This document shows positions 5,897 to 60,051 of a DNA stretch of 64,000 bases, in pieces. The DNA comes from a virus. A program made the position numbers and the translations under genes. The notes under the pieces were generated by a model. It was given only the letters and a program-made list of their open reading frames with translations, searched no databases and was not told the DNA's origin. The number at the start of each line of letters is the position of its first letter. Within the stretch, counting starts at the first letter, position 1. The stretch covers positions 13,688 to 77,687 of IMG/VR virus record IMGVR_UViG_3300015263_000597; one strand, written 5' to 3'.

Positions 5897-5912
5897 AGCA
5901 AGAGCTGTGCCA
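5897..5912 (-). promoter_or_regulatory. sigma54 (-24/-12) promoter
   Basis: Minus strand TGGCACAGCTCTTGCT (GG-N10-GC), 55 nt upstream of the 5841 start. Confidence 0.85.

Positions 5913-6242: not shown

Positions 6243-6249
<7 letters not shown>
6019..6249 (-). CDS. Putative ribbon-helix-helix DNA-binding protein
   Basis: NYHLRNIPPDLWARL...MTEIILLALERFA follows the Arc/FitA-like pattern. Confidence 0.55.
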
Positions 6250-6587
<338 letters not shown>

Positions 6588-6614
6588 GGTATGTCTCCTG
6601 ATCTGTGGTTGGTT

Positions 6615-6668
6615 GGCTCATCAGTGACTAGGTACCACCTAGCCAGACGGGGCGTACCCCGTTTCGCC
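6615..6668 (-). ncRNA. Hammerhead ribozyme, type II
   Basis: Minus strand GGC-GAAA-CGGGG-TACG-CCCCG-TC^-TGGCTAGG-TGGTA-CCTAGTCA-CTGATGA-GCC: complete core and three stems. Confidence 0.92.
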
Positions 6669-6896
6669 TTAAACTGAGGCAGTCATTAGCTGCACAGACG
6701 CACTGAGGAGAGAGTCTGCCTGAGCAATGCCTGCCTTCATCCACTCTCCAAACCGAGGGTGGCGCTTCTCAGATTCGGTGAAGATCGTCCAGTCAGGAAC
6801 GGTGTTGTCTAGACGGGCAAGAGCGAAGGCACGAATGGCCTTTTCTTCGAGGGCGGACTCTTCGTCGAGCATGTTGCTGGTGTAGATGGCGGTCAT
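6669..6896 (-). CDS. Hypothetical protein
   Basis: AGGAG RBS before ATG at 6896; stop codon abuts the hammerhead. Confidence 0.7.
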   Translation of the reverse strand: MTAIYTSNMLDEESALEEKAIRAFALARLDNTVPDWTIFTESEKRHPRFGEWMKAGIAQADSLLSASVQLMTASV

Positions 6897-7268: not shown

Positions 7269-8196
7269 TCACTTGCCTGCCTTTCTTCCACGACCTGCTT
7301 TCTCGAAAGCTTCTGCCAGTGTGCACAAAGTGATCTTCGGTCCAGTACGCCCTCTGTTCACTTCCGTGATCTCCTGCGCTGGATCATAAAAAGCATATGC
7401 GTGCTCTCGCCACTGCTCGTCTGACAACTGCTCGTCTACTTCCCGGACTTCGATATCATCATCGTTCATATTCATACCTTTAGCTTCTTATAAAGAGCGT
7501 CTAACAAGTCCTGCCGTGTAGACGCATATAGTTCCACTGTGCCGCCTTGGGTGACGAGCACAGCAGTGTGTCTGTCGCCGTCTGCGCTAATACGCAGAGT
7601 AAAGCCTAGCTTAGCGGCACGATGCTTCAGCGTTGTTTCACGATCACTCATCGTATTCCTGCTTGTGTAGATGTGCCAAGTATGCGTTAGTTTCTTCTTC
7701 CCAAGTTTGTACCGAGTACACTACGTAGCCGAACCCTATTGCTACATAAGATCCCCTGTAGATACCCATGTAATTCATGTACATCTCGCGATCTTCTGCC
7801 GTGGCGAATCTGTACTCACCTGCACAGTCGCGAGAATGGTCAACGCCTTCCCGCCAGCCCCAGTAGGTCATGCAGTACTTGCCATCTGACGTCAGTAAGT
7901 TCCGGCACTTGTCGCGTCTGTCAGTGCTCATCTGCACGGCCCCTAGAACAGTCCTCTTCAATAAGGTAAAAGCCAGTGCTAGATAGGTTAAAACGACCCC
8001 ACAGACGTTCGATGATCTGCATCTTACCGTACGCTATGGCCGCTTTGACCTTTCTGTCGTGTTCTAGACTTTCATCAATTTGCGCCCACCCGACACTGGA
8101 TCGGTGGTTATTCCCGGTCATGGCGTAAAAGTCGTGCTGACTAGACGTATCGCAGTCTGCCAGGTACTCTGCTAGAGCGTGCTTACTAAATCGCAT
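7269..8196 (-). other. Small hypothetical CDSs (7921-8196, 7644-~7931, 7269-7475 and a short ORF between)
   Basis: Overlapping start/stop codons; AAAGGAGG RBS before 8196. Confidence 0.65.
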
Positions 8197-8224
8197 GTCT
8201 GTCCTCCTTTACCGGGCGTTAGCT

Positions 8225-8281
8225 GGCATCATCAGACCCTAGGCGCAACCCTAGGGTGACGGGGGCGTACCCCGTTTCGCC
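8225..8281 (-). ncRNA. Hammerhead ribozyme, type II (extra U after CUGAUGA)
   Basis: Minus strand GGC-GAAA-CGGGG-TACGC-CCCCG-TC^-ACCCTAGG-GTTGCG-CCTAGGGT-CTGATGA-T-GCC. Confidence 0.9.
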
Positions 8282-8890
8282 TCAAGCTCGGATAATATGG
8301 CAGACTGCGGCTTCCATTTTCTGGATAGCCCTTGTGTAATCATGAACAAACGTGCCGTCCATGCCGCCCCAATTCGCCGTCTCGTCCGTTTGCTTGAACG
8401 TACAATCCTGATCAGCGACGTCAAAGAACCTCTCGGCCATCGCACAAGCCGTAACTAGCACTTTGTGGGAAAACCCGTGGAAGTATGCGTAGCATCCAAG
8501 GCTAGCCCAGCTTTCGGCTGTGTCTACACAGTGCCCGTCGAAAAGCTCGGCCTCAAACTGGCGAAATTCCTGCTCAGTGACCGGCTTGTACTCTGGACCA
8601 CGGAACTTGATGGGGTGGAGCACAGGAGAGGCAGTGTGCTTTGCGACTGCGAGATCTACCATGCGGTCAACAGCGTTAGTCCGGCACTGCCTGTATACCT
8701 TGCGAAGGGTGGCGGTATCGGTACCCACCGTATGGAACGCCATGGCGAAGATGTAACCCACCGTGCTACGGGAAAGCTGGACGCTGTTGATGTTGTCGTC
8801 AGTGTCCTCAATCGCTTGCTCAGAGATGCCCAGCAGCTGGCCGACTTTGAAGATATCTTCCTTACCGCGAGTGGTGTGTGTGTCGCTCAT
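8282..8890 (-). CDS. Hypothetical protein, first gene of a sigma54 operon
   Basis: 202-aa ORF with GAAGGA RBS. Confidence 0.75.
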   Translation of the reverse strand: MSDTHTTRGKEDIFKVGQLLGISEQAIEDTDDNINSVQLSRSTVGYIFAMAFHTVGTDTATLRKVYRQCRTNAVDRMVDLAVAKHTASPVLHPIKFRGPEYKPVTEQEFRQFEAELFDGHCVDTAESWASLGCYAYFHGFSHKVLVTACAMAERFFDVADQDCTFKQTDETANWGGMDGTFVHDYTRAIQKMEAAVCHIIRA

Positions 8891-8950
8891 GGGGTTACTT
8901 TCCTTCGGTCTGTGTCGTAGCGGTCCATTCCGCTGTATGCCAGACTATAT

Positions 8951-8966
8951 AGCAAGAGCTGTGCCA
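8951..8966 (-). promoter_or_regulatory. sigma54 promoter
   Basis: Minus strand TGGCACAGCTCTTGCT. Confidence 0.85.
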
Positions 8967-9556: not shown

Positions 9557-9982
9557 CTAGACTTGGAACATCCCATAGTCTAGCTTCGTTATCTGTTCGT
9601 CTGTCCAACCGAACGCCCCGTAGTGGGCAGGATTTTTCCAAAGCAGCAGACCTCGGTAAGCCACGTGCACCTCTGGTCGGCCTAACCATTTGGGCATTAC
9701 CACCCTGCCAGGAAATACGTCTGTAAACGACTTGATCACACCCCGCTGTGAGTCCTTGTATCCCCGTGCTAGCCATTCGTCGCAGATTGCTATCCCGTAG
9801 AAAATCAGTGCCCCCTCGTATCCTTTCCAGGCCAGCGTAACGGGGTGATTCGCATAACCCTTAGTCTGACCAGCTAACGCACGGAGCATTTGCACTACTT
9901 CGAGACGTTGCTTGCCTAGTCGCTGCTGATCCAAGTGCTTCGCAGTGCGAGGGAAGGATGGGTAGGGTAGAAATGTTTGCAT
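9557..9982 (-). CDS. Pyrimidine-dimer DNA glycosylase / endonuclease V-like (MSMEG_6728 family)
   Basis: MQTFLPY...LD..RLGKQRLE..Q...GY.NHP....W.GYE.AL..YG.AICDEW..RGYKD signature. Confidence 0.88.
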   Translation of the reverse strand: MQTFLPYPSFPRTAKHLDQQRLGKQRLEVVQMLRALAGQTKGYANHPVTLAWKGYEGALIFYGIAICDEWLARGYKDSQRGVIKSFTDVFPGRVVMPKWLGRPEVHVAYRGLLLWKNPAHYGAFGWTDEQITKLDYGMFQV

Positions 9983-10831: not shown

Positions 10832-10847
10832 AGCAAACAGCGTGCCA
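10832..10847 (-). promoter_or_regulatory. sigma54 promoter (divergent pair, left)
   Basis: Minus strand TGGCACGCTGTTTGCT followed by ATAGAGACTGG, as in the sister promoters. Confidence 0.85.
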
Positions 10848-11065: not shown

Positions 11066-11081
11066 TGGCACGCGTCTTGCT
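11066..11081 (+). promoter_or_regulatory. sigma54 promoter (divergent pair, right)
   Basis: TGGCACGCGTCTTGCT. Confidence 0.85.
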
Positions 11082-12361: not shown

Positions 12362-12377
12362 TGGCACGGACCTTGCT
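12362..12377 (+). promoter_or_regulatory. sigma54 promoter
   Basis: TGGCACGGACCTTGCT followed by ATGTAGACTGG. Confidence 0.88.
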
Positions 12378-13074: not shown

Positions 13075-14751
13075 ATGAAGATCAAACGCATGTGGGAAGC
13101 AGTCTACGCCAACGATCGTCGTAAGCACCGCCACCGCTGCCGTATCTGTGAGAAGATCTGCAAGGTTGGCGACCTCGTCATTATGTGGCGTTCGGGACGG
13201 TCGACCTACGCAGCACACACAGAATGTGTCGCCAGTCCCCATCCGGACTCAACAGAACAAGAGCCCTGGACATGGACAGACTCTATCCGTAGCTGGTCTC
13301 ACACAACCTAGTGACCATCGTCAAACCTACAAAGGAGAGAACCATGACGTCTGCATCTCCCAGCCGCTTCCTGCCTCTTGCCCCGCATAAGACCTCTGTA
13401 TATCGTGACAGAGCTGCGGTCTTCGTCGTTGAATACCACAATGGAGAGAGCTTCGTATTTGGCATCTTTGACAAAGATGGAGTCGCCACGTACGACGACG
13501 GACGGAATGATGGTACCGTTATCGGCTACTCCGTGATGCCCTCGTTGGCTAGCGTTGTCAACGCACTGCAAAATGAGGGGGGATAAAGCAGAGCACGCAC
13601 ATACACCTCAAAAAGAAAGCATCCCAGTGCACCACCAACCCATAACACAGCGCCTCCACACTTTGAACACCCCAGTCCTATCCTTACCCGCTGTTGATTT
13701 CATCACGCGGACCGCCGCAACCTCACAGACCTCAACAGCGGGGATTTTCGCTGCCGGATTTCTTGCAGGGCGAGAATTTGGCCTGGTCACTCCGTATGAA
13801 GTTTCGATAATGTACCCCTGTTTGGAACCTGGACAAGTCGACGTCTTCTGTAACGGTGCGAACGACGGAAACGAAGGAGACCTATTCCGGCTCAGATAGC
13901 AATTGCAGCTGCCAGCCTCTAATCCCGCACTGAACAGGAGATAGACCATGACTCGCTTAGATACGATTGTCATAACAACTTGCGAGAGCCCGAAAGACTT
14001 CGTCCAGCAGTACCACACCCACGTTGGAAACTCTTTCGACCTCCAAGCGATGATTCCGTCATACCAGGAGGACTTTGAACGGTTCGGTATCTGCTGGATG
14101 GACCCGCACGGTTCAAGACTTCGCCGCTTCATGGTGTGGTGTCCAAAGGGCCGAGACTTTGCGGAAAAGCTCATCCAGGACTCAATCGATAGATTTGGCT
14201 ATCTTCTCCCTTTGGAAGGGTAAAGAGGGGAATACCACTCATGCTGCGTAGACCAGGAGTTACCCGATGAACACACCCTTGTTTGAGGAAAGGGAGTCCC
14301 ATGAATAAACAGATGTGGTTACTAATAGCTAACCGAGTTGAACTTGCACATAGGGAAATTGCGGAGAACATGCACAAAGACCCCCGGGGGCTGGCTAACG
14401 AGGCCCATCTGTTGCTAATGACTGACATTGCTATTAGCTGCCGTGAGATACTTAAGGAGCTACGCAATGTAAATACCACTATCAACAGGAAGAGCGTGAA
14501 TGAATACCCCTGACACTCGTGCATACTTCTCGTATACAACGCCAGGTAACGGTGATACATTGCACATCGATGGACACCACGATCACTTTCATCTGGTATT
14601 GTCAGTTCACACGAACGATACGGAAGGGCTAGAGCCCGGCTTTGCTAACATTTGCTTTAACCTCAAGACTGTCATAGAGATCCATAAAGTACTTGGTGAG
14701 CACATCGCATGTGCTGCGCTGACGATGCAGGAGCTACAGACAGAATCGTAG
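13075..14751 (+). other. Small hypothetical CDSs (13075-13311 Zn-finger-like, 13344-13586, 13948-14223, 14301-14513, 14500-14751)
   Basis: Co-oriented ORFs with GGAG RBSs. Confidence 0.65.
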
Positions 14752-34002: not shown

Positions 34003-35757
34003 GTGAGCTTCTACGACGACTTACTAACTGGCTACGACGAACTGGTATCCACTCCAGAGGGGCTACCTGCGTCCGTAATAAACCGCCTCCAAGTACACCA
34101 ATCTCGTATGTCCACGCGGTCTCGTACTTGCCAGTCATGGCTGTACGAAAAACTCCCCGGCGTATTCAGTGATCCACCAGCGCGGTTTCACACTGACTTC
34201 TTTCATCATGTGGATACGCTGCGTCTCGGTGAGAAATCCCGTCCATACTTAGCCTGTCTACCTCGTGCAGCTGGCAAGTCTACCGTTGGCATGGGCGCTG
34301 CTGCGTTCCTCTCCGCCATGGGGCAAACTCGCTACGCCCTAGTATTATCTGAACATCTACCTAACGCACAAGACAGGCTGAAGTCACTGAGACTACTATT
34401 CGACGAACCCTCGTTTCGCCGCTCTTACCCATTGATAGCCAAGCCTGCCATGACTGCGGAAGGGCGGTTGTTAGGTTGGAGCAATCGTATTCTCTTTACA
34501 AAATCCGGCCACATATTCCAGGCCACTAGTCTAGAAGCTGGCAAGCGCGGTGCCAATCAAGCCAGTGTAGAACAGCCTGATCCAGATATGCCGGACGAAG
34601 CACGTGAGCTACTGAAAGCTGTTCGGCCTGATCTACTCATCATAGATGATATCGACAACCAGCTTGACACAGCGCGCGCAACGGCGCGTAAAGAGTCCAT
34701 CCTGTCTACCGAAGTGGTACCCATGGGCAGCCGACAGTACCCGTTACGTGTTCTTATACTCCAAAACAGGATCATACACAGCGGTGTGATAGGTCGTATC
34801 ATTGAACGCAAAAGCTCGTGTTTTAACGACGCAATAGTCAGTGGTCCATGGAAGGCCATAGTAGACCTGAAGACTAAACCAGTGATGCGCAAGGTCAAGG
34901 CTACTGGGGCAGAGAGCATGAGTGAAGCAGAGCTAGATGAGTACGTTCGTCAGCAACATGACGCAAGTCACCAGCAAGAGAGCGCACTTGAGCAATACGT
35001 AGAATACCCAGCACATGACATCGTGGGCGGTATCCCTAGCTGGCCGGAGGGGATGAGTATAGCCAAGTGTCAGCAGCTAATCGACGACATGGGTATAGGG
35101 GCGTTTCGCGTAGAAATGAACCACGAGACTACGAATCGCGAAGGGGCGTTGCTGGACGATTCGTACTTTCAACAAGTACCAGATGAGTTTGACTTAAAAA
35201 CGATCCGTGAACGTATTGTATCCGTTGACCCTGGCGGCGGTGCTACAGAGTCTGGCATTACTGTAATAGGCCGCTCTATAGGTGAGAAGGCTGGTACCCG
35301 ATGCATGATGTACTACGTCATGGAGGACTTGACTACGGGGCCGCGCGAAGGTTGGGAGGTCGTTGCTGTCATGGCGGCTCATCGGCACAAATGTGACATA
35401 CTGGTAGAGGACAACTACGGCGGCAAGAATCTAATCCGTGCAGTAGAAACAGTGCGCGATGACCTGCGACGACGTGGTAAGATACCTGGTCGACTACCTC
35501 AAGTCCACCCCGTACACGCTAGCAACAACAAACATGACCGCGCTGTACCGTTCTCTATGGTGTACAAAGAAGGCCGAGTGTGGCACGTAGGTGACCAATC
35601 GCGGTTGGAAAAACAGTGGACTAGTGCTATACTGGAGCAGAAGGGCGTAGAGAGCCCGGATACACTGGATAGTGCGGTCCATGGGTATAACTACCTGGAT
35701 AGTAAGCCGCAAGGTATCGTGGTTGCTGTTGGCGCTGGTACAGATAGCTTTGTGTAA
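34003..35757 (+). CDS. terL: Terminase large subunit
   Basis: Walker A PRAAGKST, Walker B LLIIDDID, RNase H-like VSVDPGG...SPDTLDS. Confidence 0.92.
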   Translation: MSFYDDLLTGYDELVSTPEGLPASVINRLQVHQSRMSTRSRTCQSWLYEKLPGVFSDPPARFHTDFFHHVDTLRLGEKSRPYLACLPRAAGKSTVGMGAAAFLSAMGQTRYALVLSEHLPNAQDRLKSLRLLFDEPSFRRSYPLIAKPAMTAEGRLLGWSNRILFTKSGHIFQATSLEAGKRGANQASVEQPDPDMPDEARELLKAVRPDLLIIDDIDNQLDTARATARKESILSTEVVPMGSRQYPLRVLILQNRIIHSGVIGRIIERKSSCFNDAIVSGPWKAIVDLKTKPVMRKVKATGAESMSEAELDEYVRQQHDASHQQESALEQYVEYPAHDIVGGIPSWPEGMSIAKCQQLIDDMGIGAFRVEMNHETTNREGALLDDSYFQQVPDEFDLKTIRERIVSVDPGGGATESGITVIGRSIGEKAGTRCMMYYVMEDLTTGPREGWEVVAVMAAHRHKCDILVEDNYGGKNLIRAVETVRDDLRRRGKIPGRLPQVHPVHASNNKHDRAVPFSMVYKEGRVWHVGDQSRLEKQWTSAILEQKGVESPDTLDSAVHGYNYLDSKPQGIVVAVGAGTDSFV

Positions 35758-39614: not shown

Positions 39615-39729
39615 GGCTGTAGCTCAGTCTGGTAGAGCAAGCGTAGCCGCAGGTTCGAATCCTGCCTCTGTGCGCAGAGTAGCTCAGTCTGGTAGAGTGA
39701 CGCTGTCAGCGGTTCAAATCCGCTCAGCC
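39615..39729 (+). ncRNA. Anticodon-less double-elbow tRNA-mimic RNA
   Basis: Two D arms, two T arms, two acceptor-like stems and one shared 5-bp helix AGCGT/ACGCT. Confidence 0.85.
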
Positions 39730-60035: not shown

Positions 60036-60051
60036 TGGCACGCAGATTGCT
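60036..60051 (+). promoter_or_regulatory. sigma54 promoter
   Basis: TGGCACGCAGATTGCT upstream of ORF 60105-60284. Confidence 0.85.

Follow-up and report, generated by a model that had tools for sequence, protein, structure and literature searches.

Whether a short structured RNA between two genes of an uncultured phage is a working self-cleaving ribozyme, and what its cleavage would do to the messages on either side, is the question raised by a locus in IMG/VR record IMGVR_UViG_3300015263_000597. This record comprises 77,687 bases with a completeness rating of 100%, and the whole stretch of DNA analysed here (the window) covers 64,000 nucleotides of it, from position 13,688 to 77,687. As a large terminase, a portal and a major head protein are encoded, the record represents a tailed phage, whose complete genome has no close relatives. 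An earlier sequence-only reading had proposed a hammerhead ribozyme (ribozyme 2) at 8225-8281 of the window, placed like a second copy (ribozyme 1) after the first gene of a sigma54 operon. The features of the ribozyme 2 locus are as follows:

8952-8966, minus strand: sigma54-type -24/-12 element TGGCAC-N5-TTGC, exact consensus, before the 202-aa ORF
8282-8890, minus strand: upstream ORF of 202 aa (ATG 8890, TGA 8284-8282)
8217-8282, minus strand: type II hammerhead ribozyme 2, entire motif including the 3' tail (Rfam RF02276, minimum-energy fold)
8259-8275, minus strand: stem III hairpin (sequence reading, fold, covariation in 98 distinct phage hammerheads)
8258/8257, minus strand: predicted scissile bond (Rfam alignment position, inferred from the hammerhead consensus)
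8236-8257, minus strand: stem I hairpin (perfect 8-nt inverted repeat, fold)
8228-8235, minus strand: core CUGAUGA (8235-8229) plus inserted U8228 (Rfam alignment)
8218-8223, minus strand: 3' tail, predicted pseudoknot partner of loop I (complementarity, imperfect in ribozyme 2)
8203-8210, minus strand: Shine-Dalgarno sequence AAAGGAGG, 6 nt before ATG 8196 (sequence reading)
7921-8196, minus strand: downstream ORF of 91 aa (ATG 8196)

Comparison of the window with all 4227 Rfam families by cmscan, with E-values computed for the whole window, revealed four matches at the curated thresholds: two tRNA-like matches and two Hammerhead_II matches (RF02276), the latter both on the minus strand. A looser Rfam scan of the window detected no additional ribozyme. 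Hammerhead_II had only these two matches in the whole 77.7-kb genome, and the identical search found none in 14 control genomes. Ribozyme 2 (8282-8217) aligned with the full length of the model (1-66 of 66) at 49.5 bits (gathering cut-off 37, E 3.6e-7), and its minimum-energy fold agreed with the hammerhead claimed by the sequence-only reading, whose span of 8225-8281 is exactly that set by the outer stem II pair, G8281-C8225. Without any constraint, the minimum-energy fold of the 66 nt was the hammerhead three-way junction (-27.6 kcal/mol, z -2.0), in which loops cap stems I and III and stem II is left open.

Stem II of ribozyme 2 has three base pairs (G8281-C8225, G8280-C8226, and C8279-G8227) and is followed by GAA at 8278-8276, the core nucleotides G12, A13, and A14. 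Stem III contains six pairs including A15.1-U16.1 (A8275-U8259 to G8270-C8264, loop UACGC) and one bulged or unpaired C, while stem I forms eight pairs (8257-8250 with 8243-8236) around the loop GUUGCG (8249-8244). CUGANGA and GAAA, as conserved features of the core, are present, and the cleavage-site nucleotide is not G. The core is complete, with 11 of 11 invariant positions, the G10.1-C11.1 and A15.1-U16.1 pairs, and the GUC triplet, and its sole deviation is the extra U after CUGAUGA that had been noticed previously, which appears in the Rfam alignment as an insert (U8228) between A9 and G10.1. The same alignment places the GUC at 8260-8258, so that the predicted cut falls between C8258 and A8257, the very position proposed before.

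The motif occupies the gap between two genes whose 202-aa and 91-aa proteins had no PHROG or Pfam match. As had been described, ribozyme 2 starts on the last base of the upstream stop codon, the final A of the TGA (8282) being position 1 of the Hammerhead_II model, and precedes the AAAGGAGG-ATG of the next gene. The sigma54 promoter claimed before the first gene is also real at the consensus level: the exact TGGCAC-N5-TTGC element at 8966-8952 lies ~60 nt upstream of the ATG (8890) of the 202-aa ORF. Seven exact matches to this motif were found in the window (5898-5912, 8952-8966, 10833-10847, 11066-11080, 12362-12376, 34541-34555, and 60036-60050) compared with 0.24 expected from shuffles, indicating that the sigma54-type motif class is real in this phage. 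Neither the Sigma54_activat nor the Sigma54_DBD domain is present in the phage genome, implying that any activator is host-encoded or unconventional. A general link between hammerhead-bearing phages and sigma54 promoters was rejected, since ~120 other loci hold only four exact consensus matches, approximately the chance level. On the minus strand, no terminator was predicted from 9300 to 5400. In the same region, a 13-codon mini-ORF (8887-8928, minus strand) lies downstream of the predicted sigma54 start site and runs up to the 202-aa gene, its TGA overlapping the ATG of the latter (ATGA), and may be either a coupled leader or a chance occurrence. In addition, a 141-aa ORF (9557-9982, minus strand) matches pyrimidine dimer DNA glycosylase (Pyr_excise, E 5.5e-23) and is the sole small gene nearby with a family match.

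The second copy is found 1.6 kb away on the same strand, which is the coding strand:

6607-6669, minus strand: type II hammerhead ribozyme 1 (Rfam RF02276, 40.6 bits; fold)

Its minimum-energy fold is likewise the hammerhead junction; it begins on the final A of a TAA stop codon, and AGGAG and then ATG follow downstream. The 'same placement' attributed to both copies therefore stands as regards the gap between stop codon and RBS, but not as regards the promoter: the gene upstream of ribozyme 1 lacks a sigma54 element of its own; what it has instead is a sigma70-like TTGACT-17-TACACT, a type of motif whose count is not above chance. The flanking proteins at both ribozymes have no known relatives. 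Two further observations concern the neighborhood of ribozyme 1. The 114-aa ORF directly downstream (6243-6587, minus strand) encodes 17 consecutive glycines near its C-terminus, and 20 nt of the ribozyme 1 region from stem III to the cleavage site (6643-6662) are 75% complementary to the coding region of the next gene (6464-6483), a pairing that could be an alternative competing with the ribozyme 1 fold.

Over 21 nt, the 5' halves of the two ribozymes are identical, and a single additional C is all that distinguishes their stems III, in agreement with the near-identity noted earlier. Stem I had been described as divergent yet fully paired, which was also borne out. Its five distal pairs are identical, whereas the basal three read A-U, C-G, and C-G in ribozyme 2 and U-A, G-C, and G-U in ribozyme 1; thus, three of the eight pairs have changed on both sides while all 8 bp of pairing were retained in each copy. 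Loop I and the tail change jointly as well (UGGU/ACCA in ribozyme 1, GUUG/UAAC or GUUGC/GC(U)AAC in ribozyme 2). For the previous argument that compensatory change reflects selection on function, two paralogues with three compensated pairs provide modest evidence on their own, pointing in the same direction as the Rfam score; the stronger evidence comes from that score and from covariation over ~100 phage relatives of the motif.

Relatives of the locus itself were searched for in several ways. No match was found when 5.5 kb were compared with phage records by megablast, when the 202-aa protein or the 20-nt ribozyme half shared by both copies was compared with viral contigs, or when the capsid protein was compared with bacterial genomes. 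Among 5.8 billion protein clusters, the 202-aa protein retrieved only itself (three contigs are said to carry the sequence). The sole metagenome contig matching the 20-nt ribozyme half (L122) contains no hammerhead and was dismissed as a chance match. A terminase search yielded one 4.7-kb fragment, whose terminase is 89% identical and in which a hammerhead is absent. Because no relatives of the locus were found, ribozyme 2 was placed within the wider hammerhead family.

A core-only pattern (GGCGAAAC, GTC, and CUGAUGA with free spacers) matched more than 118 viral contigs, several of which hold 3-6 hammerhead copies each. Both hairpins were present in 104 of the 160 pattern matches listed, far above the expectation for free spacers; 100 of these 104 two-hairpin matches were non-redundant, and 98 distinct sequences entered the alignment statistics. 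The named structure was paired in 89.4% of cases compared with 63.6% in shuffles and 33-44% in slid controls, with stem III columns (helix 2) at 97.6% and stem I (helix 3) at 90.8%; these percentages are inflated by the pre-filtering of the set for four pairs per hairpin, which leaves the many double changes unaffected. Double changes occurred at all eight of the eight stem I pairs, and the covariation score of the 98 sequences was 0.597 versus 0.160 in shuffles, none of 500 shuffles being as high.

The genomic setting of these relatives is similarly consistent. Among the 100 phage hammerheads listed, the stop codon of a long ORF lies no more than 6 nt upstream in 70% (5.9% of random same-strand positions), and a Shine-Dalgarno sequence with a start codon lies within 90 nt downstream (median 28 nt) in 82% (30% of random positions). 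A search of relatives for the gene-ribozyme-gene layout had been suggested by the sequence-only reading; it could not draw on relatives of the locus, none having been found, but the layout with both elements is present in 57% of the 100 family members listed compared with 2.2% of random same-strand positions. Ribozyme 2 follows this family-wide stop-ribozyme-RBS rule, and its arrangement with the stop codon abutting GGC is shared by 18 of the 100 listed. In 78 of the 100, the base preceding stem II is A. An extended stem II with a bulged stop codon is conceivable in both ribozymes (AGCU/AGCU and GUU/AAC), but was rejected as chance, as pairing between the near upstream flank and the tail across the 100 phage hammerheads is no better than that of permuted partners (3.40 vs 3.42). 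At loci L022, L044, L108, L110, L040, L053, and L113, which belong to other uncultured phages, 4-6 type II hammerheads occur within a few kb, and the tails in these arrays are often near-identical (GCCAGCCUGCUC...) and followed by GGAG, suggesting that the ribozyme together with the RBS behaves as a repeated intercistronic module.

These data bear on the simplest alternative, namely that ribozyme 2 resembles the hammerhead consensus by chance and has no function at the RNA level. The E-value of 3.6e-7, the second copy in a similar gap, the compensated stems, and a placement that is a family-wide rule all argue against it, and the probability left to this explanation is negligible: it is effectively refuted by the Rfam match, the family covariation, and the family layout.

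A different possibility is that the motif is a genuine hammerhead that has decayed or been strongly attenuated, serving only as a structured spacer in which two GC-rich hairpins insulate or stabilize the flanking cistrons. The inserted U8228, the bulged C of stem III, and the imperfect pseudoknot are consistent with such decay, and slow or absent cleavage has been reported for some naturally occurring core variants (Perreault et al., PMC3088659). The pseudoknot between loop I and the tail is critical for fast cleavage in type II hammerheads (Perreault et al. 2011, PMC3088659), and across the family this pairing reaches 3.99 bp compared with 3.39 +/- 0.08 bp for permuted partners. In ribozyme 2, only two of the four columns pair in the consensus register. 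Two other registers can be formed, either GC(U)AAC with GUUGC (five Watson-Crick pairs, U8221 bulged) or UAAC with GUUG (four contiguous pairs including one G-U, at a tail offset of 3 versus the usual 0-1). Stem II is also weak in a long context: within 201 nt, it had a probability of 0.01 and the native fold was 3.6 kcal/mol above the minimum, in an ensemble of nested structures that excludes the pseudoknot and tertiary contacts.

The inserted nucleotide recurs within the family. CUGAUGA is directly followed by GCC in 89 of the 100 phage type II hammerheads listed, whereas an insertion after A9 is U in seven (including ribozyme 2), A in one, and C or G in none; of the remaining ones listed, two retain no more than GC from stem II, and another is irregular. 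In a viroid hammerhead, according to the part of PMC3705267 that relates the work of De la Pena and Flores (2001), an extra A was tolerated, U gave a 3-4 fold higher rate, and C or G was harmful, and in Penelope-element hammerheads a nucleotide is conserved at the A9/G10.1 insertion site (PMC4209133). The insertion position in the plus-strand CChMVd hammerhead (De la Pena and Flores 2001, as given in that part of PMC3705267) and in the Penelope hammerheads (PMC4209133) is the same as in ribozyme 2, but those are viroid and retroelement ribozymes of type III or type I, whereas ribozyme 2 is a phage type II ribozyme. Because U recurs in the family and parallels the viroid kinetics, U8228 was regarded as a recurrent variant and not as a sign of decay; by analogy, it is probably a harmless, tolerated variant of the core. 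Decay is further opposed by the 11 of 11 invariant core positions, the intact G10.1-C11.1 pair and GUC triplet, the higher score of ribozyme 2 than of the insertion-free ribozyme 1 (49.5 vs 40.6 bits), and the recurrence of the U insertion in several otherwise intact phage hammerheads, U being the one inserted base described as activity-enhancing in the portion of PMC3705267 cited above. Altogether, a decayed or attenuated spacer seems unlikely.

Another element of the locus is a long helix whose arms lie within the flanking genes:

8298-8309, minus strand: 5' arm of a 12-bp helix, codons -9 to -5 of the 202-aa ORF (perfect inverted repeat)
8151-8162, minus strand: 3' arm of the 12-bp helix, approximately codons 12-15 of the 91-aa ORF (perfect inverted repeat)

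The arms are 100% complementary, 135 nt apart, and bracket ribozyme 2, the RBS, and the AUG of the 91-aa ORF. In the 201-nt ensemble, the helix has a pairing probability of ~1.0; stems I and III persist, and the 3-bp stem II is out-competed in this nested model. The motif is unique within the window and, compared across 98 phage hammerhead loci, is the longest pairing of flanks; with permuted flanks, 12 nt were reached in only one of 2919 trials. In the genome as a whole, perfect inverted repeats that reach 12 nt or more and whose arms are no further than 300 nt apart number only six, versus ~1.2 seeds expected by chance. Ribozyme 1 has no counterpart of this helix. Long-range flank pairing was rejected as a family trait, as the excess was slight (6.80 vs 6.44), the arms had no common position, and the difference may be an effect of base composition. 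The helix may tether the cleavage products or couple processing to translation. A specific form of this idea, in which the helix gates the ribozyme by tethering the products and enclosing the start of the 91-aa gene until ribosomes completing translation of the 202-aa gene melt the 5' arm, is considered quite improbable; if it were true, cistron separation or the balance between cleavage and ligation would depend on translation of the 202-aa gene.

Taken together, ribozyme 2 is probably a functional type II hammerhead within a polycistronic phage mRNA, whose predicted self-cleavage would uncouple the cistrons. Its motif, fold, placement, and family-wide covariation are directly supported; from these, we infer cleavage in vivo and an effect on expression. 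Transcription would probably start at the sigma54-type promoter (8966-8952), and the RNA would fold co-transcriptionally into the three-way junction, with hairpin stems III and I, the 3-bp stem II, and loop I touching the 3' tail. Self-cleavage after C8258 would then leave the 202-aa message with its stop codon and a 3' end at which stem III forms a hairpin bearing a 2',3'-cyclic phosphate, while the 91-aa message would carry a 5'-OH on the stem I hairpin at its start, ahead of a strong AAAGGAGG RBS of its own, and the two cistrons would become independent in stability and translation. Hairpin ends carrying a cyclic phosphate or a 5'-OH alter the stability of bacterial mRNAs, and those of ribozyme 2 may act likewise. 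In engineered RiboJ-type insulators placed between cistrons, self-cleavage fixes the 5'-OH end of the downstream cistron, which then begins with a hairpin; the products predicted for ribozyme 2 are similar in this respect, but it is a natural element built on another ribozyme scaffold.

The presence of two copies also allows a joint action to be envisaged, in which the RNA from 8257 to 6646 is released as a unit that bears 5'-OH and cyclic-phosphate ends and could be ligated to a circle or handled as a cassette, or the shared 21-nt half is a module for DNA recombination. Both ribozymes lie on one strand with an identical 5' half, no minus-strand terminator was predicted between them, and circular or spliced products were proposed by Perreault et al. 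(PMC3088659). However, such products were not detected in that study (PMC3088659), no RtcB ligase gene was found in the phage genome, ribozymes 2 and 1 are separated by a sigma70-like promoter, and each ribozyme of the family occupies a stop-to-RBS gap, which is consistent with simple cistron separation. Paired action is thus very improbable, and cistron separation by each ribozyme remains the preferred reading. A further, weaker suggestion involves a tRNA-like match:

39615-39729, plus strand: tRNA-like match with a 61-nt insert (Rfam, 29.2 bits)

Within it, a sub-threshold match to YrlA (Y-RNA-like) was observed at 39644-39699 (37 bits, cut-off 69); RtcB and Ro60/TROVE genes were searched for in the phage genome and none was found. 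Recognition of RNA ends of the 2',3'-cyclic-phosphate type is reported for RtcR (PMC7790460, PMC10159003), and the predicted cyclic-phosphate ends made by the ribozymes might, in combination with the Y-RNA-like tRNA mimic and the promoters of sigma54 type, link the phage to an RtcR-type sigma54 activator of the host.

Among known systems, the closest is the RF02276 type itself (PMC3088659), with which ribozyme 2 shares the core, the permuted topology, the open 3-bp stem II, the conserved A preceding stem II, and the tail/loop I complementarity, and from which it differs in the U between A9 and G10.1, the bulged or shifted register of the predicted pseudoknot, and the unpaired C of stem III. 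The crystallized pseudoknot hammerhead (PMC11300833) was set aside as a comparator: in place of helix II it has a pseudoknot plus an additional stem-loop, an architecture so different that the comparison would be wrong. Regarding the genomic setting, same-strand hammerheads between small phage genes, as observed here, are known from the prophage clusters in Figure 3 of Perreault et al. 2011 (Agrobacterium ardA, Clostridium scindens, and Azorhizobium; PMC3088659), whereas the present case has only two copies, a free metagenomic phage, a sigma54-type promoter, and flanking genes without known relatives. Such prophage clusters flanking genes cleave in vitro and in E. coli and were proposed to cut a long transcript into gene-length messages (PMC3088659), which is the best-supported reading for ribozyme 2 as well. 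In Desulfovibrio vulgaris, cleavage inside the cell is known for three type II hammerheads that neighbor phage-like genes (PMC8782182), a further point in favor of this reading.

Hammerhead clusters between phage genes have been known since 2011; ribozyme 2 is therefore a further example and leaves knowledge of the class unchanged. The purpose of bacterial and phage hammerheads is still called undefined in reviews (PMC6765202), and because their biological role is unproven, each clean and well-placed example becomes a candidate test system. This phage offers a natural pair of ribozymes with and without the inserted U inside one genome, which, combined with the stop-to-RBS placement, the sigma54-type promoter, and the flanking helix, could make the locus usable as a test of whether cleavage sets the relative expression of neighboring phage genes.
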